DNA from: Schmidtea nova
Lineage: Eukaryota
Direction: 5' to 3'
Length of the DNA stretch: 64,000 bases
NCBI GenBank assembly: GCA_044892505.1
Contig: CM097883.1
Location: forward strand, 186,062,001-186,126,000
Shown: positions 15,255 through 59,988 of the stretch, piece after piece
How the letters are laid out: each line of letters starts with the position of its first letter
Numbering within the stretch: position 1 is the stretch's first letter
The notes under the pieces: model-generated
What the model was told of the DNA's origin: nothing
The model's database searches: none
The model's input: the letters and a program-made list of their open reading frames with translations, nothing else
Program-made: the position numbers and the translations under genes

Positions 15255-15375
15255 AGTTGAATATTTAAAATTAACTGGTGTTTTAATAATTGGGTATTTT
15301 GGGACTTTTATAAAATTTTAATTAAATAAATCTATGAAGGAAGTTCAGTCTTTTAAAACCGAGTTTGATTTAACT
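15255..15375 (+). repeat. 5' LTR (121 bp)
   Basis: Identical to 19763-19883 except one position (agttgAat vs agttgGat). Confidence 0.95.
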
Positions 15376-16647
15376 GGCGACCACGCCGAAAATCAGAATG
15401 TCAATGCAGTTTCGAAATCAACAAAGACGTTAATGGAATGCCTACCAAAATCATGCCAAGATATGCTCACGCTGAATATCAGACGATATGATGGACGAGG
15501 ATCGAAAGAAGCAGAAGAATGGATCAGAGACATAGAAGAATGGCTGTTGACAAATGGACAGCGATTGACAAGCACCTTCGATGTGTTATTAGTGGCAGAA
15601 GCTAAGACATTGTGGGGAAACGTCAGAGAAACAGAAACAACAGATGTGAAAGCCAAAACTTGGTTCCTAAATACTTTCACAATTACGAAGTCAATAACTG
15701 ACAAAATCAGAGAATTGGCAGTTCTGGAACAGGAAGATGATGAACGTTTTGCAGCTTTCGAGATTCGATTAAGGAAAGCTTTAGCTGAAGTTATAAATTC
15801 AGGACGATCAGAAGAAGATATTGTTCAAGATCTCATCGCAAATAAAGCACGTGATGCGAGATTGAGGGAAATATTATTGACAAAACCAGAAACAAAAATT
15901 GAAGAAACGAGATCATTGGCGAAGATTTTTGAGAGTAACCAAAAGGGAAGCAATAAAACTGAATTTATTAAATCAATTGGTAAAAGAACATATGCCAGCG
16001 TGATTGATGGAGGGCAAATGAGAATTCAACAGAATACTCAAGATACCAGACCTACACCATCACAAAGAAGACAATCAGAAGACCCATTTAGTCATCACAG
16101 ACCAAGAAGAGATGAACATCCGATACAATTCGAAGAAAATAACCGCGGTCGACGAGAACAATTCCCAAAAGAACAATTTTTGAGAAATGTTAGAATCCAA
16201 GATGGCTCAGAAAGAAAACTGCCAACAATTTCCATGAAGAATATAGCAAGAAGGATCTATAACGAAAGTAGAGGACTACCACAAGCACCGGCTCCAAAAT
16301 TAACAGTAGGTGATTGTTTTTGCTGTGGCGAAAGGGGACACAAAAGATATGAGTGCCCACTGGGAAATAAATGCCTGATATGTGGTAAAGAGGGACACGG
16401 ATTCCGAGATTGTTTTTCGTTACGGAAAGAGGTGCCCCGTCGATATCAAAGAATAGCGTGCATAGAAGAAGAAGATTCCAAATCTGAAAGAAGAGATTAC
16501 ACCGAAAACAGCCAAGATTTCAGAATGGCTCACAGCGATATGGAAGATAGATACAATGTTCCTGAAAAATATACTACATTGAGAGAAGACGGAAAAAACA
16601 TCAGCGACTCCATGGGTTTCATTTCGTCGGTGGAGTCAAGGCAATAA
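15334..16647 (+). CDS. gag: Gag with two CCHC zinc knuckles
   Basis: YDGRGSKEAEEWI, QEDDERFAAFEIRL, CFCCGERGHKRYEC, CLICGKEGHGFRDC; first ATG lies inside the LTR, true start probably downstream. Confidence 0.92.
   Translation: MKEVQSFKTEFDLTGDHAENQNVNAVSKSTKTLMECLPKSCQDMLTLNIRRYDGRGSKEAEEWIRDIEEWLLTNGQRLTSTFDVLLVAEAKTLWGNVRETETTDVKAKTWFLNTFTITKSITDKIRELAVLEQEDDERFAAFEIRLRKALAEVINSGRSEEDIVQDLIANKARDARLREILLTKPETKIEETRSLAKIFESNQKGSNKTEFIKSIGKRTYASVIDGGQMRIQQNTQDTRPTPSQRRQSEDPFSHHRPRRDEHPIQFEENNRGRREQFPKEQFLRNVRIQDGSERKLPTISMKNIARRIYNESRGLPQAPAPKLTVGDCFCCGERGHKRYECPLGNKCLICGKEGHGFRDCFSLRKEVPRRYQRIACIEEEDSKSERRDYTENSQDFRMAHSDMEDRYNVPEKYTTLREDGKNISDSMGFISSVESRQ
15375..15385 (+). promoter_or_regulatory. 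Primer-binding site TGGCGACCACG (tRNA-Arg type)
   Basis: Overlaps last T of the LTR; complementary to a tRNA ending CGUGGUCGCCA (GACCACG acceptor, as in eukaryotic tRNA-Arg). Confidence 0.7.
16593..16637 (+). promoter_or_regulatory. -1 ribosomal frameshift signal (A AAA AAC + stem-loop)
   Basis: Slippery heptamer in gag frame; GACTCCA (16606-12) pairs with TGGAGTC (16631-37); -1 frame is open to pol ATG 16695. Confidence 0.8.
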
Positions 16648-16694
16648 ATTATGAAAGAAGAAATGAACGAAGAAGAGACGAGGCAGAAGAAGAG

Positions 16695-19600
16695 ATGTAT
16701 CAGACGAAGGATGGAAGAAGTTGGAGTAAAATAATGTTGAATAATACAGAAGTAGATATGTTATGGGACTCTGGAGCGTCAGTAACAGTCATGAGCAAGA
16801 ATCTGTGGGAGAGAATAGGCAAACCAGACCTTCAACGTAGTACTATATTATTATGCGGCGTATTTTCAACTGGAGGTGAAGAGGCAATGGGATATATGAA
16901 TATATCAGCCACATGGAATCAGAAGACCAAAATTATCACAGTAGTGGTTGTAAAAGAGATCAAGCCAGAATTCATAGGGGGTATTGATACAATGAAAGAG
17001 TTTGGAGTAAAGTTAGTGAAGATCAATAATATAGAAACTTCATACATAAACAAAATCCACACTGATGAAGAAAGAATAAATAAAGCACTAATGGCGATGG
17101 CAAGTGAAAATAATAAAGACATTGAAGGAATGATCAGGAAATACGGCGGAATATTTATGGCGTCGAAATTTGATTTGGGATTTACAAATTTAGTTCGACA
17201 TGAGATGCGGATAACAGGAGGCCCAATAATGCAACATCCTCGACGTCAACCAATGCACATGGAGAAAAAGATTGAAGAACTGATAAAAGAATTAATAAAA
17301 GCAAATGTTATTCGGTGTTGCAAGAGTCCTTGGAATGCCCCGTTAGTTATAGTAGGGAAGAAAGATGGATCCATCAGGATGTGTGTAGACTATCGTGGAT
17401 TGAATGCCATAACAGAAAAGGAATCATTTCCGATGCCTAATACCAAATTCTTATTAGACTGTCTAGCGAATGCAAAAATATTTTCGTCAATTGATTTAGG
17501 CCAGGCGTACTATCAAGTAGAGTTGGCCCCAGAAATTCAAGAAATGACTGCATTCAGTACAAGAGAAGGACAATTTTGCTTTAACAGACTACCGTTTGGC
17601 CTAGCAACAGCTCCTGCGACATTCCAGAGACTGATGCACAAAGTACTAGAAGGAATGCTATTCAAAGGGGTAGTTGTTTATTTAGATGATATTTTGATTT
17701 ATGGGAAAAGTCAAAAAGACCACGATGAGCTACTAGGGGAAATATTTAGAAGAATTCAAATGGCAGGATTGAAGATAAATCCAGAAAAATGTGAATTCAA
17801 TAAAACAGAATTGTGTTTCCTTGGGCACACAGTTAACGAGAAGGGTATCCAGACAAACAGAAAGAAAGTTGAAGAGATCGAGAAAGCAGAAATACCAAAA
17901 TGTTCAAAGCAATTAAGATCGTTTCTCGGATTAACGAACTATTATCGAAGATTTATTAAAGACTACGCCAGAATCGCAGAACCACTATATGCCGCAACAT
18001 CTGGATGCGATAAAGATATAATTTGGACTAAAGAATGCAATGAGAGTTTCCAAACACTAAAGGAACGGTTGTGCGAGGCACCTATCCTTGATTATCCAAG
18101 AGAAGATAGGACATTTATCTTAGACACAGACGCTAGCTTTGGAGCAATTGGTGCAGTTTTGAGCCAAATTAAAGAAGATGGAGAAGAATCTGTTATAGCA
18201 TATGGTTCGAGACATATGACATCACATGAAAAGGGTTACTGTGTAACCAGAAAAGAACTGCTCGCTGTACATGAGTACGTCATACATTTTAGAGAATATC
18301 TTTACGGAAAGAAATTCATAATTCGCACCGACCACAAAGCATTGGTTTTCATGAACACTACAAAAACACCAATCAGTCCGCAGTTTCAAACATGGTTAGC
18401 AAACTTGTCTGAATATGATTTTGAACTAAAATATCGGAAAGGTGAACAACATTCGAATGCTATGGACTATCAAGATTAAAAAGTATGATTTGTTCCCAGT
18501 GTCAAACGCGACATGAAGATGCCAAGGAAGGAAAGTCAAAAATCCGATATATATATACTATCCAAAGAACAGAAGCTATGGAAAAAGTATTGGAGCAACA
18601 GCAGAAGGACATTAGGTTTCGAGAGTTACGAGAGATATTAGAAAATGGATGCGCACGGGACAAAAAGAATTGTTTCCCATTTAACGTAAAAAATACAAGA
18701 ATTGATGGAGGATTAATAACAGTCGAAAAGAACGAAAATATTTTAATGTTAGTTCCAGAAACCTTTGCAGGCTTATTAACAACAACTCTACATGAAGAAT
18801 TATGTCATATTGGAGTTAAGAAATTATTCCATTATATGGAAAAGATATTTTACTGGCCGAAGATGCAAGAAACAATTCAGCTCTGTTTACAATGTTGCGA
18901 TATCTGCTCTAAGAGAAAGATCGACCAGACAAGAACCAAGGAAATATTTATCCCTAGATGTAGTTCTGAATTCCTAGAACAGATTGTAATGGATGTGGCC
19001 TACATGGAAAAAAACACCATTAAAAAATATATGTTAGTAATTGTGGACCGGTTTAGTAAATTGATTTCTTTGACCGCAATCACGAAGCAAGACGAAGGGA
19101 CAATTTTCAAAACTATACTTAACAGTTGGATCTATCGATTTGGAAAACCAAAGATCATTTTAACAGATAGAGGACGCAATTTCGAAGGGAATTTTCTAAG
19201 ACAGAGACTACAGAAACTTGGAATCAAACAGGAATTCAGCTCACCTTACCAACACCAATCAAATGGATTAGCCGAACGAGCCATACGAACAGTAAGAGAT
19301 CTTATTACAGCGACATTGGCAGGTGGGTGTGAAGAGAGAAACTGGCATGAACTTCTACCTAGAATAGAGTTCAGTATAAATAGCAGTCGACAGAGTGCTA
19401 CAGGCTTATCACCATTTGAGATAATTTATGGACGGAGTGTTAACCTACATTCAAACCTGAAACAAGCAGAGATATCAAGAAGCGAATGGATAGAAGACGC
19501 AAGATATAACTCGAGTAAAGCCGCAGACACTATGAGAGCTATGGATAAGACAAAGAGAGGAACTCGTGTTTTTGAGGTGGGGGAGGAGGTACTCGTACGC

Positions 19601-19753
19601 AAAGAACCGCAGAACAGGCACAAGGATGGTATGCAGTACGATGGCCCATATAAAATCATCAGATTTCTATCACCTCATCGAGTCGAACTACATTCGCAAG
19701 AAGGAACGAAAGAAAGAAGAATCGAGTGGCTGAAGAAGTGGAAAAGTTCTTAA
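16695..19753 (+). CDS. pol: Pol (PR, RT, RNase H, integrase) broken by a 1-nt deletion near 18462
   Basis: LWDSGAS, YLDDILI, LDTDASFGAIG, HIG...C..C, DVAY, TDRG, GLAERAI; adding one G at 18461/2 restores NADGLSRLKSMICSQC. Confidence 0.95.
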
Positions 19754-52303: not shown

Positions 52304-52563
52304 ATATAGCAGAATCCACTTTGACACAATTAAAAATTTATTAGGTAATCGGAAAAAACGATTGCGCAACGAATTTCCAAAAAATACAAAGTATTACATA
52401 ACACTAAAGTGTTATATAATTTTTGTAAATCCCCTTAAAAATTTTCTTGAGAGGGAATTCAGTGGCTTTTGATGGGTCAGGGGTAAATGACTTGAAATAT
52501 GACTGTGCTGTACCCTTCCTAAATCAGTACAAACATGTACTTCACATAAAATCTAAATGTTAT
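52304..52563 (+). repeat. Left direct repeat (putative 5' LTR, 260 bp)
   Basis: Differs from 59727-59988 by 3 substitutions and 2 single-base indels; followed by TGGTGGGGGT (52566), a possible tRNA-Ala-type PBS. Confidence 0.75.
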
Positions 52564-52844
52564 TGTGGTGGGGGTTTTATTTTATCCGGCGGGTATGTCG
52601 GAGTTCGTGGGAAAAGTTGGAAATTGCTCATAATAGCGATATAGATTATGAACAACTGATAATCAAGTCTGTAGATGAATTGGATACTTTAATCAATAAT
52701 CACTTTTTGTAATTTAGTTTTTTTAAAAATATAAATTTTAAATTTTGAAAGATTTGTTTATTATACAACTTGGAATTCATTTTTTTGACAATAAATTTTA
52801 TCTATAAGTTTTCAGAAACAAATTAGTTTGGAATTTTTAATAAC

Positions 52845-53180
52845 ATGGCTAGTAACCTAGAAAATGGTATCAATGTAATTACTGATCAGATGGGAAATCT
52901 TGATGTAAACTCAAATGAAAATATCAATACAAATCAAAGCTCTAATATGACATCGGATTTTAATCTTTTGAGGCGGAATAAGTATCTAGAAAATATGGTC
53001 ACGATGAATTCATATAACTGTGATAAATTACTTTTATCTCGAAAGTTGCCTATTTACCTGCTCAGCAGTTATCTGATAATCAAATCAATTCGTGGTATAA
53101 AACCACCAAAATGGTGTCAGAAAACGAGCCTGCACCATTATCATCTGGGTCATTCGCAGTGCCGGTCTCTTCGACAATGA
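52845..53180 (+). CDS. Upstream ORF, possibly the frameshifted N-terminus of the chimeric ORF
   Basis: One extra A at 53025-53027 would join MASNLEN...NCDK to the open frame [14 protein letters not shown]...MVSENE. Confidence 0.35.
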
Positions 53181-55222
53181 ATTCCGGCCAATCGTCAAAT
53201 CCAATCGCAACTCCTTTAACAAATAACATCAGCCAATTAAATATGCTCCGTGCTCCTTCGAGTTCTCAGTTCAAATTCAGAGCCAGTAGCAACCCATCCA
53301 ATAATATGTTCAGTGCTACTCTTGCCGGCAGTGCTCAGCAACAGCCGCCTGTGGCAGCTGAACCGTTCTTATTCAATTTCGGGAGCAATCAACCGGTTTT
53401 CCAATTCGGGGGCAGTGTAAATGCACCTAATGCACATCTAGCGTTTGCAGCTGCGTGCATTTTTCAAGCACAAGGTGACATTTGGCTCGCAATTCATCAC
53501 TTGGAAAAGGCCGTCACTCTCGAGCCTAATTTCTTAAATGCTTATGTCAATCTTGGGCACGTCTTCAGAGAAGCAAGGATATTCGATCGTGCCGTTGCAG
53601 CTTACATTAAAGCATTAACTTTGGATCCTGATAATCCTATTTTACACGAGAATCTTGCTTTTGTTTATTATGAACATGGTCTCTATGACCAGGCTATTGA
53701 CAGTTATCTCAAAATCATCGACTTACAACCTAATTTTCCTGATGCATTCTACAATCTAACCAAGGCAATGAAAGAAAAAGATTCTCTTAACAATTTGGCC
53801 AATCTTAAACGGGAACAAGGGCTCAATGAGAAGGTAACGAATATCTATAAAAAAGCATCGAAGATTTATGCAGAATTTATCGTTTCCCATTCCAACCTGG
53901 CTAGTATGTTGAAATTGCAAGGCCATTTACAAAGCGCTCTAAATCATTATCGAGAAGCCATTAAAATATCACCAAACTTTGCCGATGCATACTCAAATAT
54001 GGGTAACACTTTCAAGGAACTACAAGATTTACCGAATGCTGTACAATTTTATCAACGTGCTATTCAAATCAAGCCAACCTTTGCTGATGCTCATTCAAAT
54101 TTGGCAAGTGTATACAAAGATACGGGTAATATCAATGAAGCAATCGGGTCCTATACCACAGCGTTGAAAATCAAGCCAAATTATCCGGAAGCGTTTTGCA
54201 ATCTTACTCATTGTCTTCAAATAGTTTGTGATTGGGCGGATTATGATACACGAATGGAGAAACTTGTCACTATCATTCACGAACAATTGGAATATAAACG
54301 TTTTCCATCTGTCCCCCCTCACCACACAATGCTCTATCCACTCACTCCAATGGAACGCAAGGGTATTGCCGAGAGGCATGCTAAATTGTGTGTCGATAAA
54401 GTGATTCCATTACATAAATATAAATATAAATTCGTCAAGCAATTATTTCACGGTGAGCGATTAAAAATAGGATATGTCAGTTCTGATTTCTGTAACCATC
54501 CCACAAGTCATTTGATGCAAAGCATTCCTGGAATGCATGAAAAATCCAGTTATGAAATATTCTGCTATTCCCTAACATCTGATGATGGAACATCGTTTCG
54601 CCAGAAAATTGCATACGAGACTGAGCATTTTGTTGACCTGACTGCGATACCGAATAATGGTGATGCTGCAGATAGAATTCCCCAAGATCGCATTCATATC
54701 CTTATTAACATGAATGGATACACAAAGGGCGCTCGAAATGAAATATTTCCACTCATTCCAAGGCAACTCGATCACGCAAGTCTTTTTAAAAATTTTATTT
54801 TTAACTTATGTCTGCCCGTTTTTGGACAGTTTAATATTCCCGCCATGTCTAGCCGCGCGGGGGGTATCGGCGCCTCGGAGCCCACAGTTTATATAAACAC
54901 ACCTTTCTCTCTTTTTGTTGCCGTGGGGGGCAAAAACTATCACATCCTTCTTGCTGCTACCTCTACTGTAAGGGATTTAAGGGACACTTTACGCAACCTC
55001 ACCCCATTTAGTGCCCATTGTCAATTATACTTTAGCGGACATCGTTTAGATGACCAAGATTTATTGTCCACCCACAAAATTACCCACAATAGCGTGATAC
55101 AGGGTTATTTTCCTTTCCTCGGTGGCGCCTCAGACTCCGAGAGCGATCACCAGGAAAATGACCAGGCTGACCAAAGGAAAGGCAGCACTAGCGCGAAACC
55201 ATCTAAACAGAGGTCCACCTAA
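53111..55222 (+). CDS. OGT: Chimeric ORF: FxFG-rich region + truncated O-GlcNAc transferase (53456-54748) + linker + ubiquitin-like domain (~54905-55126)
   Basis: [15 protein letters not shown]..., [69 protein letters not shown], then Ubl ending [10 protein letters not shown]...FLGG. Confidence 0.95.
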
Positions 55223-56137
55223 CTATGTCAGTATTTTCTAGACGAAAATAACTCCCCACTGACATGGTTAATATCTACCGAGCTCGCACTCGAGGGCATA
55301 GGGGTTACATTATCTCGAGACAAATACTGTCGTATTTTACCATTAATCCCACCTAACATACTTAGTAAGTTGTCTGCAGTGATTCTCCGCACTTCCTCAC
55401 CTTCTTTCAAAAAACCTTACGAGGAATTAAAAACTGCGTTCCTCGACATTTTTAAAGAACCAACTGCTGCAGTTTTTACCAAATATTTCAAAACCCAAAC
55501 TTTGGGAAATAAAAAACCATCCCAGTTTCTTCAGCATGCTATTGCTGAATTAGAGCAAATGCACTCGGGTGCAGCAGCTGACAAGAATTTGTTGCGGCAG
55601 TTCTTTCTTTCGGCTTTGCCACCACATGCTCAACAAATTCTTGCTCTTTCCTCCACTGAAGACGTTGTCGAGCTAGCAAAAATGGCCGACAAGATAAACG
55701 AAGTAGTTCCTCTTGGTGCACAATCTGCATACGCGATCCAGGCAGATCACCAACCTACCGTGATGGCTTCTCCTTCATCAATTAAACCCTCTACGGAAGA
55801 AGCCTTAATAGCAGCCATCACCGGGCTTACTAAAAGGATAACAGAACTCGAGAGCTCGATGTCTTCTAGAAAACCTCGGGATGTAGCACCAAATTATAAT
55901 CGTAGACGCTCACCCTCACGCTCTTCTTCTAATAATAGAAATTTGTGTCGTTTTCATCACAAATTCGGAAATAAGGCAAGATTCTGCCATTTAGGATGTA
56001 GTTGGCGCGATAAGTCAACATCTTGCCAAATCCTTGATAAATGCATTTATCACGACAGGTTCGGCGATAAAGCTTTCAAATGTATACAAGGTTGTGTCAA
56101 GCATAAGACACAACAAACTGACACACAAAAAAACTAA
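55223..56137 (+). CDS. gag: Gag capsid and twin CHCC knuckles, same frame as the Ubl ORF beyond one stop
   Basis: Frame open from 55223: SPLTWL..E.AL...KY..IL..IP...PYEELK...LGNKKPSQFL...FFLSALP; CRFHHKFGNKARFCHLGC and CIYHDRFGDKAFKCIQGC. Confidence 0.88.
   Translation, partial: LCQYFLDENNSPLTWLISTELALEGIGVTLSRDKYCRILPLIPPNILSKLSAVILRTSSPSFKKPYEELKTAFLDIFKEPTAAVFTKYFKTQTLGNKKPSQFLQHAIAELEQMHSGAAADKNLLRQFFLSALPPHAQQILALSSTEDVVELAKMADKINEVVPLGAQSAYAIQADHQPTVMASPSSIKPSTEEALIAAITGLTKRITELESSMSSRKPRDVAPNYNRRRSPSRSSSNNRNLCRFHHKFGNKARFCHLGCSWRDKSTSCQILDKCIYHDRFGDKAFKCIQGCVKHKTQQTDTQKN
56128..56134 (+). promoter_or_regulatory. -1 frameshift slippery site A AAA AAC at gag stop
   Basis: In gag frame immediately before TAA; -1 frame reads K-L-I-M into pol ATG 56140. 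Confidence 0.7.
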
Positions 56138-56139
56138 TC

Positions 56140-59100
56140 ATGCCATCACTTCTTGCGGCAGAAGTCGGTGGCAAACTCCCTCCAGCTTTAGACCTTTTCC
56201 TACTCGACGCAGAATCACCAGTCTTTAATCTAGATGGTAATTCATCTAACAAATTACAATTTTTGATCGACACTGGCTCCAGTCTTTCGATCCTTCCAAA
56301 GGAATACTTTTCGAAATGTGACTCTACCGTTATTTCTCTTAAAGCCGCAAACGGTAGCGTCGTTAACACATTAGGTTCGAGGCAAATTTCTTTCAAATTG
56401 CCATCTTTGTCTGATCAAATATTTCTTTGGAATTTCTGCGTTGCCGACGTTGTGGTACCTATTTTAGGCTCAGACTTTTTGAGCGCAAATAGCCTGCTAG
56501 TGGACTGTCGTTCCCGTATCCTGAGAACACAAAACCACTCAGTATCTGCTCTTAATCATCGCATATCATTTGACTCGCCAAAAATCAATCACAGCACTAC
56601 TAACATATCTTCAGCTGTTATTCATCCGCAGATCGCGATCGACATTATAAATAAATACCTTAAAGATCCAAAAGACTCACAAACTTCAGCACCGTACTTT
56701 CATTCCATAGAAATAACTTCTGCACTTCCTATCCGCTGTAAGCTGAGACCTTTATCCAACGAAAAACTAGACTTCATCCGTTCGGAACTTTCCTCTTTAC
56801 TAAATAAAGGTACTATTCGGAGATCTAAATCTCCATGGTCTTCACCTCTGCATCTAGTCCCAAAGAAAGACGGCACTTTCCGTCCTTGTGGAGACTATCG
56901 AAATCTTAACGCCATCACCGTACATGATTCTTACAGCATGCCATTAGTCGGTGATATTCTTCACCGTTTGACAGGTGCTAAAATCTTTTCAACAATCGAT
57001 CTGGTTAAGGCATATCATCAAATTCCTATGAGAGAATCTGACATCGAGAAAACAGCCGTATTGACTCCAATCGGCCTGTTTGAATGCGTCTGGATGCCAT
57101 TTGGCCTTCGTAACTCTGCGCAGACGTTTCAAAGATACATTGACCAAGTTCTGATGGATTTGCCTTTCGCAATTCCATATATCGACGACATTCTCATAGG
57201 ATCTACCGACACAGAAACACACAAATTGCATTTAGATATGACCTTAAAAGCACTACATAAAAATAGACTTAAAATAAACACCGAAAAATGCATTTTCTTT
57301 CAGCATGAAGTCCGTTTCTTAGGTCATTTAATTTCTGAAAATGGAATTCGACCTCCTACAGATAGACTTGATACGATTTCTAATTTCCCACTTCCGAAAA
57401 CTGTATCTCAGTTAAGGAGTTTCCTTGGAACAATTAATTATTGTCATCGTTTCATCCCAAGGGTCTCTGATATCTTATCACCTCTGTCTGGTTTAGTTTC
57501 TAGACCAAAGAAATCCCTCGTTGTATGGAATGATGTTGCTTTACAATCATTCGAAAACGCGAAACTAGCTCTTGCTAGCATTCAAAGCCTTCACTTTCCT
57601 AAAGGAAATTTACCTTTAAACTTGACTACTGACGCCTCTAACGTAGCTATTGGCGCAGTTTTACACCAAATAAATAATAAAGTTTCCGAACCTTTAGAGT
57701 TCTATTCCAAAAAATTATCCTCTGCCCAACAGAAATATTCCGCTTTTGATCGAGAACTTCTTGGTATTTTTCTCTCGATCAAACACTTCAAACACTTGCT
57801 TGAAGGTGGATCTTTTACAATTTTCACTGACCACAAGCCTTTAACTTATCTTTTCAAAATGAAAGACCCATCTCCTCGACAGCAGAGACAAATCAGCTTT
57901 ATCTCCGAATTTTCTTGCGAGATACGCCACATTGCAGGCAAAGAAAACGTCATTGCTGACTGTTTTTCACGTAGCACTAATGCTATTCTTCACGACCCAA
58001 TGTTCTCATCGAACGATCTTCGTGAAAAACCACCTTCAGCCAAACACAGCCTCTTTCGGCGATAACCATGAAATCGTTGATGGAATTCACTTTGATACAT
58101 CTTTATCAGGTGTTTTACGACCAATTTTACACGATTCTTTACGCAAACTAGCCTTCCATTCCGCACACGACTTGCATCATCCAGGTTCTTCCGCCACTTT
58201 CAATCTTTTGCATTCGCAAGTTATTTGGCCAGCCATGAGGCATGATGTGAAACTTTGGGTAAGTCAGTGTATTGGTTGCCAACAACACAAAATAACCAGA
58301 CACACCAAACCACCTATTATCCATTATCCAACTGGGAATAGGTTTGAAATCCTTCATATTGACTTAGTCGGTCCTTTACCCGTTGATCATGGTTTTTCTT
58401 ATTTGCTAACCATGATTGATCGCAAAACACGCTGGTTCGAGGTAATTCCTGTGAAAAGCATATCTGCTGAAATCGTAGCAAATGCAATTCTTCAAAACTG
58501 GATAGCCAGATATGGCGTTCCTAAGTCCATAATCACCGACAGAGGAACCCAGTTTGAATCTCAGTTATTCCAACATTTAACTTCGAAACTAGGAATTCAA
58601 CATCTCCGATCTACCACATACCATCCTCAAACTAATGGCATGATCGAGAGATTTCATCGAACCTTAAAAACCTCGTTAGGAATTCTTTCCAATAACTTAA
58701 ACTGGACCAAAGCTTTACCTTTTGTTCTTCTCGGTTGGCGCAATACACCTTCCAGAACAACTGGAACATCTCCGTCACAGTTGTTGTTTGGATCTGCAAC
58801 TTCTTTACCGAGCGAACTAATCGATTTTGACAACACTCCTACTTTGGAAGAGTTAGACATTGCTAGAGATCACTTTCTCTCGATTGATAGCAACCCACAG
58901 TTTTCTTCTTCGACATCTTACACACCGTATGTTCCGAAAACCTTAAAGGACGCAAAACATGTATATGTCCGTAATGTAACCGATTCCAGTCTTAGAACAA
59001 AATATTCTGGACCTTATGAACTCATCGACATAACAGACAACAACGCACATATAGTCGTTAAAGGCATCACACAAACTATAAATTTATGTCGACTTAAACC

Positions 59101-59494
59101 TGCCTTCGTAATGTCTGACGATGTGATTGAAAAAGAAATTAAACCAAATTTAGATAAAACTCCAACAGAATTTAACACCATAGAACCAGAATCTGATATC
59201 AATAAAAACTTACCCGATTCCAACGAAATTGCGCGTACTTTTGTCACAAATTATAAAACAACTAGTGAAAACAATAACTTGGACATACCGCAAACTTCCG
59301 TTGTAGTAACACCAGATATACCACAACCTACTTCAATTCTCGCAAAACCTGACAAAAAGCGAATTCCGGGTAGAGTAACACATTGCGATAAAATTTGGGT
59401 ACGTAAAGTCGGACAAGACCCATCTACACCTGCACGACTTGCCCGAGTTTATTCCAACGACAATTTGACTCATCTGATGCTGAAATTTACATAG
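56140..59494 (+). CDS. pol: Pol (PR, RT, RNase H, integrase) with a +1 A at 58025-58029
   Basis: FLIDTGSS, PYIDDILI, TTDASNVAIG, TDHKPL, HHPG..C..C, HIDLVGP, ITDRGTQF, GMIERFH; removing one A restores DLRENHLQP. Confidence 0.95.
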
Positions 59495-59726
59495 TCTTTA
59501 TTGTTGCATTAACTTTCTTAAGACCGATATTTCCTTTAAACTTCATCTAATAAACATCATTCTATTATATTGTTTTCTTTTGGTATTTTCTTCAATACGA
59601 AATTAAACTTCTAACTAATATATTTTCTCTAAATTATTTTCCCAGAAAATCATTACCTAACTCCGTTAAACTACGACTTCACTACATTTCAATCACCTTA
59701 TTGTGGGTGGTTGAATAGCAAAATCC

Positions 59727-59988
59727 ATATAGCAGAATCCACTTTGACACAATTAAAAATTTTATTAGGTAATCGGAAAAAACGATTGCGCAACGAATTT
59801 CCAAAAAATACAAAGTATTACATAACACTAAAGTGTTATATAATTTTAGTAAATCCCCTTAAAAATTTTCTTGAGAGGGAATTCCGTGGCTTTTTGATGG
59901 GTCAGGGGTAAATGACTTGAAATATGACTGTGCTGTACCCTTCCTAAATCAGTACAAACATGTACTTCACATAAAAGCTAAATGTTAT
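59727..59988 (+). repeat. Right direct repeat (putative 3' LTR)
   Basis: Copy of 52304-52563; preceded by G-rich tgtgggtgg (degenerate PPT) and a 14-bp duplication of atagca(a/g)aatcca. Confidence 0.75.

Follow-up and report, generated by a model that had tools for sequence, protein, structure and literature searches.

A gypsy retrotransposon variant with in-frame host sequence ahead of a ubiquitin-like domain and Gag, and a predicted cut after the GG that joins them

The window, a 64,000-nt stretch of Schmidtea nova contig CM097883.1 from an AT-rich animal genome, holds on its forward strand, at 52564-59708, a damaged copy of a Ty3/gypsy retrotransposon (Table 1). Pfam places protease, reverse transcriptase, RNase H and integrase after gag, in the order of Ty3/gypsy pol, and the family, whose elements are about 7-8 kb long, has paired LTRs running TG...AA, a primer site, a polypurine tract and 5-bp target duplications; the LTR, primer site and target duplications were defined by comparison with 79 other copies (39 close ones and another 40). 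In the same genome, a DNA search scored 40 of 123 candidates, every one at least 97% alike, and a peptide search with the ubiquitin-like domain (Ubl) ahead of Gag gave at least 104 matches (150 scored of 220 candidates). The median identity of paired LTRs, 99.4% in 43 copies, indicates that the family moved recently. The Gag match to PF23055, at E 1e-4, lies below the Pfam cut-off. A second gypsy element at 15322-19753 of the window (gag, PR-RT-RH, IN) serves as an ordinary neighbour for contrast, and its 441-codon gag frame has no match to Pfam ubiquitin.

Table 1. Features of the retrotransposon copy and its flanks, in window coordinates.
Feature	Position	Strand	Remarks
Flank repeat	52304-52563		260 bp; second copy 59727-59988; direct repeat, 98-100% identical; distinct from the LTR
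5' LTR	52564-53110	+	starts TGTGGTGG, ends CCACCAAA; paired in other copies
Swappable LTR segment	52749-53067	+	ATG at 52845 (MASNLENG...); varies between sub-families, flanks common
Primer-binding site	53112-53122	+	TGGTGTCAGAA; read through in the Gag frame as MVSE
Low-complexity segment with two FG motifs	53129-53455	+	from sequence
Captured spliced fragment of host OGT mRNA	53456-54753	+	Pfam and host-gene match
ATG and 22-codon leader before the Ubl	54845-54910	+	not conserved
Diverged Ubl ending in GG, predicted cut site	54911-55126	+	Pfam, predicted fold, selection
Disordered linker from GG to Gag	55127-55219	+	pLDDT under 50 at residues 93-122 (AlphaFold2)
Stop codon private to the window copy	55220-55222	+	absent from all 79 other copies
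Gag: DUF7041-like helical capsid region and two Cys/His knuckles	55223-56137	+	PF23055 and model
pol: protease, reverse transcriptase, RNase H, integrase	56122-59494	+	Pfam
3' end of family match	59495-59708	+	polypurine tract and 3' LTR absent from the window copy

The window copy carries several lesions of its own. Its 5' LTR is ~540 bp shorter than that of most copies (about 1090-1120 bp there), the frame of its LTR segment is shifted near 53044, and its pol is divided between two frames near 58040. A stop codon lies 31 codons past the GG, at a position where 78 of the 79 other copies have a sense codon and one has a gap, and it leaves Ubl and Gag unjoined in this copy; the Ubl-Gag fusion proposed here by an earlier sequence-only reading is thus a property of its relatives, 17 of the 39 young copies having an open frame of 430 aa from the equivalent of the ATG at 54845 to the end of Gag. 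The 260-bp flank repeats were considered as LTRs and rejected, as a different sequence is paired at the ends of other copies; they were not seen beside the 39 other aligned copies. The flank duplication surrounds a copy that has no 3' LTR, a pattern suggestive more of repair or recombination than of normal integration. The primer-binding site is presumably of the tRNA-Leu type; ARAGORN found no tRNA.

The strong-context cccgccATG (54839-54847) and the domain closing in GG (55121-55126) are present as originally described, and the likeness to ubiquitin goes beyond chance, the 72 codons of the domain exceeding the Pfam PF00240 cut-off of 25.4 bits with a score of 28.5 (E 1.3e-6) at an identity to ubiquitin of about 20-25%. 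AlphaFold2, run on a 28-row alignment, predicts a block at residues 21-90 with pLDDT 77-92 and the beta-grasp order of elements, and Foldseek matched this model to ubiquitin, ISG15 and NEDD8 at target TM of about 0.80-0.84 and rmsd of about 2 A; a single-sequence model was poor (mean pLDDT 53) yet matched the same fold. Of the 79 copies, 69 retain the GG and 10 have lost it, three of these by change of the second glycine to Asp; we assume the losses to be decay after insertion. The FLGG tail of the window is a private variant, its Phe being replaced by Leu in 75 of 79 copies. As in cleaved precursors, a conserved xLxGG stands at the end of the domain and no Pro follows it. Residues Arg42, Ile44, Arg72 and Arg74 of ubiquitin, which we take to be its E1 contacts, form surfaces read by many deubiquitinases. 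The window's family has Gln42, Tyr44, His48, Pro72 and Leu74, all four contacts being replaced, so that only a tolerant enzyme could cut its Ubl, and the earlier idea that the released piece would be conjugated finds no footing in this family.

To weigh selection along the element, dN/dS was calculated on 80 copies, variants shared by at least three copies being set against single-copy variants. The ratio for shared variants falls to 0.38 in the Ubl (44 synonymous and 55 non-synonymous, against 0.92 for single ones, P 0.0016), to 0.13 in Gag (against 0.83) and to 0.08 in reverse transcriptase (against 0.80), and reaches 1.18 in the leader after the ATG at 54845; neither the FG segment nor the two LTR segments give a selection signal. 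Purifying selection acts on the Ubl and not on the adjoining OGT piece at 54092-54745 (0.81 against 0.92, P 0.84). The TPR part of OGT does show a signal (0.43 against 0.75, P 0.037), which may come from selection or from the host gene having been captured repeatedly.

The OGT piece is a spliced fragment of a host mRNA and not part of the element proper. It comprises TPRs and the first 181 of the 543 positions of Glyco_transf_41, matches a source gene at G000:C1:519.5 Mb at 97% over 53779-54753 (975 nt), and is devoid of an intron of about 1.8 kb present in that host gene. Host OGT genes lie at C1:216.95 Mb and C1:519.5 Mb of the same assembly, the second with a duplicated 3' exon 36 kb away. 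OGT had been given a place in the mechanism, a role hard to maintain for a piece of spliced host mRNA that one of the six families carries and that is neutral over 54092-54745. As for the FG segment, a 79% match at G000:C3:142308311-142308613, inside a 1157-codon frame, marks a candidate host source gene, and about 16 near-identical copies at G000:C2:449.3-449.5 Mb and 455.07-455.71 Mb, near the contig end, were apparently amplified by segmental duplication. A nucleoporin source was sought with PF10599, which matched nowhere, the controls included.

Searches with two distant relatives recovered five further families in the same genome, in all of which a Ubl-type xGG precedes Gag. The tails of the six families read LLGG, MRGG, LYGG, ARGG, LRGG and LRGG, and OGT is absent from the printed translations of the five. 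A copy with Ubl and Gag but no OGT also occurs in the window's own family, at locus L062, where the primer site is separated from the Ubl by only 150 nt and the tail reads LRGG. Distances from primer site to Ubl within the window's family fall into multi-copy classes of 1799, 1388 and 1031 nt that share one frame.

Beyond this genome, word-indexed protein searches gave no relatives, whereas a full HMMER search with Gag against 1.84 billion representatives found about 2977 related proteins with an E of at most 0.001. A Gag-only tree of 136 sequences (the window and 135 of the best 150 of the 2977, 15 truncated ones being dropped) places the window in a clade of 36 members with FastTree support of 0.93. 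A GG lies 5-55 aa before Gag in 33 of the 36, the other three being truncated at the N-terminus with only 21-26 aa upstream, and GG is present in 3 of 185 and in 11 of 138 control windows of 50 aa. Outside the clade, a Ubl occurs in one of the 16 sequences with at least 55 aa upstream among the best 150 of the 2977. This one, P0140, has its Ubl at residues 453-522, ending LRLRGG seven residues before Gag, and is perhaps an independent second origin or a gene-calling join. An apparently invariant GG in an alignment, A1, was discarded as circular, its rows having been selected for GG.

The GG is kept among Gag relatives only 24-34% identical to the query. Of the 36 tails, 34 have Leu or Ile at position 73 and 29 have Arg or Lys at position 72 (Arg72 in 24 of the 36 distant relatives); nine different residues occur at position 74, and Pro never follows the GG. 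The body of the domain ranges from near-true ubiquitin, as in P0026 (E 3.7e-23) and P0115, to that of the window, which has no BLAST match to the Ubl of P0026. A tail that stays fixed as the body varies looks like a protease site.

The clade proteins come from metagenome sources, and for most database relatives, joins made in gene calling could account for the long N-terminus; two were checked as DNA, namely metagenome contig L176, with 1303 unbroken codons of cargo, Ubl and Gag followed by pol, and L178, with at least 796 unbroken codons. Host-like pieces precede the Ubl in P0005, P0012 and P0006 (histone H2A, 5'-nucleotidase and a weak cohesin HEAT match), of which P0006 alone was verified at the DNA level as a single unbroken frame. 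A metagenome scan gave three relatives among 191, none with a recognisable LTR or primer site, and LTR capture is thus demonstrated in the own genome only. Of 70 pattern matches in the viral collection none was confirmed as a relative, the phage DNA search was empty, and atlas searches returned ubiquitin and DUF7041 clusters only.

In all six own-genome families the Gag frame stays open upstream, across the primer site and into the LTR, giving one open frame that runs from an ATG inside the LTR across the primer site and cargo to Ubl and Gag. We examined the 600 nt before the primer site at 125 loci that have one (80 of 118 first examined and 45 of 52 more). At 87 of these 125 loci, which are not independent of one another, and in 11 of 19 cargo clusters, the longest ATG frame coincides with the Gag frame and extends to the primer site. 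At the remaining 38 loci it lies in the Gag frame with a stop (13), in other sense frames (19) or antisense (6); an LTR ORF of this kind is lacking from eight of the 19 clusters, and that of one family is only 27 codons long. Among 13 loci with the window's type of LTR segment, 9 have it in the Gag frame with no stop as far as the primer site. The LTRs of one family share their first part and their last 35-45 nt, whereas the middle is exchanged.

What these middles encode was read by Pfam in all six frames of 26 representative loci, chosen after the 87-locus result. Of 27 stretches in the Gag frame, 6 were recognised, as protein kinase, histidine phosphatase, NOMO1, PCMT, DEAD helicase and the ZNF598 RING, and of 79 stretches in other frames, none; a seventh host cargo in the Gag frame is the N-terminus of a PP2A scaffold (residues 6-101). 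All seven identifiable host pieces are thus in the Gag frame, for which chance would be about 1 in 2000 among three sense frames if captures were independent and frame-blind, a figure that is indicative since the representatives were picked after the LTR-frame count. At L199, L217 and L218 the link to the Gag frame runs through sister copies, and a stop precedes the primer site in L199 and L218. The PP2A cargo matches host locus L162 at 98-99%, beginning 94 nt before the ATG; it is without a 50-nt GT-AG intron and joins the second intron boundary directly to the next exon, and hence derives from mRNA. PP2A scaffold and OGT are the two cargos with confirmed host source genes. The search for a source was negative for NOMO and for the two LTR segments of the window, four NOMO and seven other candidate loci turning out to be LTR copies or fragments. 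LTR frames at L116:2911-3468 and L071:1875-2327 consist of two successive pieces, in frame, showing that captures can stack, and starts resembling signal peptides are apparent by eye in L123 and L125.

Taken together, these comparisons support cleavage after the GG, and a role for it in tolerating upstream cargo, as a prediction from sequence, because the GG is kept across such distant Gags, the Ubl is selected, and the cargo is swappable yet in frame. Host deubiquitinases probably cut after the GG, which would free Gag from a variable host-derived front end. Early in minus-strand synthesis, reverse transcriptase would switch from the LTR end to a co-packaged host mRNA, whose 5' part would be copied into the LTR, and scanning ribosomes would then start at the borrowed AUG. 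Out-of-frame captures would die out, and in-frame ones would survive only because the cut at the GG strips the foreign N-terminus, so that the start of Gag would stay constant whatever precedes it. The released cargo-Ubl piece is probably waste. The chief doubt lies with the enzyme, given the ubiquitin surface residues lost in the window's family, although the diverged FUBI is cut at its GG by USP36 (PMC8354635). In a broader reading, to which we give somewhat less than even odds, this gypsy clade would have no fixed start of its own and would borrow host mRNA 5' ends for its LTR, together with their leader and start codon, as a heritable counterpart of cap-snatching, the domesticated Ubl letting host deubiquitinases strip the borrowed N-terminus off Gag; borrowed leaders could confer host-like translation or disguise from small-RNA silencing.

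One rival reading differs on where translation begins. Gag could instead start near the Ubl, at 54845 or from a spliced RNA, with the Ubl as a cleavable aid to folding or yield like that of ubiquitin-ribosomal protein fusions, and with LTR and internal cargo as untranslated passengers. The ATG at 54845 is present in 44 of 45 close, young copies, a Met stands 70-136 codons before the GG in most families, so that internal starts are possible, and the cargo is without protein-level selection over most of its length. Against this, the ATG is found in only 54 of 79 copies overall and 10 of 34 older ones, being missing in the other 24, 51 ATGs lie upstream of it in the window copy, and in intact-framed copies the frame stays open upstream of it back into the LTR, so that the start originally assigned to 54845 is not upheld. 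A start near the Ubl would also leave unexplained the Gag frame of all seven LTR cargos and the three multi-copy internal lengths, and we regard it as unlikely.

Two other readings concern the fate of the Ubl itself. If the cut occurs and the freed Ubl or cargo-Ubl is functional, either conjugated to targets or as a decoy for the host ubiquitin system, then the predominance of Arg or Lys at position 72 of the clade tails, the near-true ubiquitins of P0026 and P0115 and the measure of selection on the Ubl body would accord with this; the Gln42, Tyr44, Pro72 and Leu74 of the window's family, bodies that differ between families past BLAST detection, and cargo that is arbitrary and truncated speak against it, making it quite improbable. 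Integral Ubl domains are common, and the Ubl might be an uncut N-terminal domain of Gag that docks on the proteasome or p97 or governs how much Gag there is, with the GG a flexible hinge or relic. Such a role would fit the loss of canonical deubiquitinase contact residues in the window's family and, in the available part of that report, the internal Ubi2/SUMO-like motif of Burro elements (PMC6431247). A relic GG should, however, have decayed at this degree of Gag divergence, yet all 33 testable clade members keep it, with Leu or Ile at position 73 and no Pro after it, and Gag would have to carry arbitrary cargo, including the apparent signal-peptide-like starts; we hold an uncut Ubl to be very improbable.

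If borrowing of host starts and cutting by host deubiquitinases are borne out, retrotransposons would have invented the ubiquitin-fusion trick long ago, and a host enzyme rather than the element's protease would set the start of Gag. This would explain how host sequence can be captured upstream of gag without loss of autonomy, and would provide a route for copying host gene starts to hundreds of sites, the NOMO piece alone having 134 matches in its own genome; such LTRs are liable to be annotated as copies of host genes.

Overall, the element appears to be a gypsy variant with an apparently unreported expression strategy, in which the cut itself is predicted. It shares with Ty3/gypsy elements having a DUF7041 (PF23055) Gag the LTR, primer site, gag, PR-RT-RH-IN pol and 5-bp target duplications. 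Ordinary DUF7041 Gag relatives have short N-termini and one knuckle, whereas the window's clade has a Ubl-GG leader and two knuckles, a frame beginning within the LTR, and an LTR terminus of AA, not CA. A beta-grasp domain and GG ahead of a fused partner are shared with ubiquitin-ribosomal protein and FUBI-eS30 precursors, but here the Ubl is encoded by a retroelement and sits behind variable cargo rather than at the N-terminus, the cut being a prediction. In the available portions of the work on FUBI, which is 36% identical to ubiquitin, the GG is needed for cleavage by USP36, which shows that divergence from ubiquitin need not keep a USP from cutting a Ubl at its GG (PMC8354635). Ubiquitin inserts likewise act as processing signals in cytopathic BVDV, as the sequence-only reading had pointed out; according to the available text, host hydrolases cut after ubiquitin to give the viral protein its true N-terminus even behind a foreign S27a fragment (PMC8310069), and these pestivirus inserts are recent, near-intact and confined to single strains, whereas the Ubl described here is old, diverged and fixed across a clade. 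The giant gypsy elements of planarians in which the Burro motif occurs exceed 30 kb, with Gag N-terminal and the motif between MATH and BCL-2, and the available part of their description does not mention GG cleavage (PMC6431247); the present element is far shorter and has its Ubl ahead of Gag. Fixed extra domains in LTR elements are described as rare, and a Ubl is not named among them in the available text (PMC9289625). The literature covered, outside subscription journals, supplements and Repbase Reports and in part available as excerpts, contains no report of a Ubl-GG ahead of Gag or of in-frame host 5' ends inside LTRs. The closest precedent for the capture step is LTR-mediated retroposition, in which, as far as the available text goes, template switching captures spliced host fragments, which often keep the reading frame of the parental protein, and gives internal chimeras flanked by discontinuous elements (PMC5131818); here, in contrast, host 5' ends lie inside the LTR and in the Gag frame, and the elements keep gag and pol and have spread.
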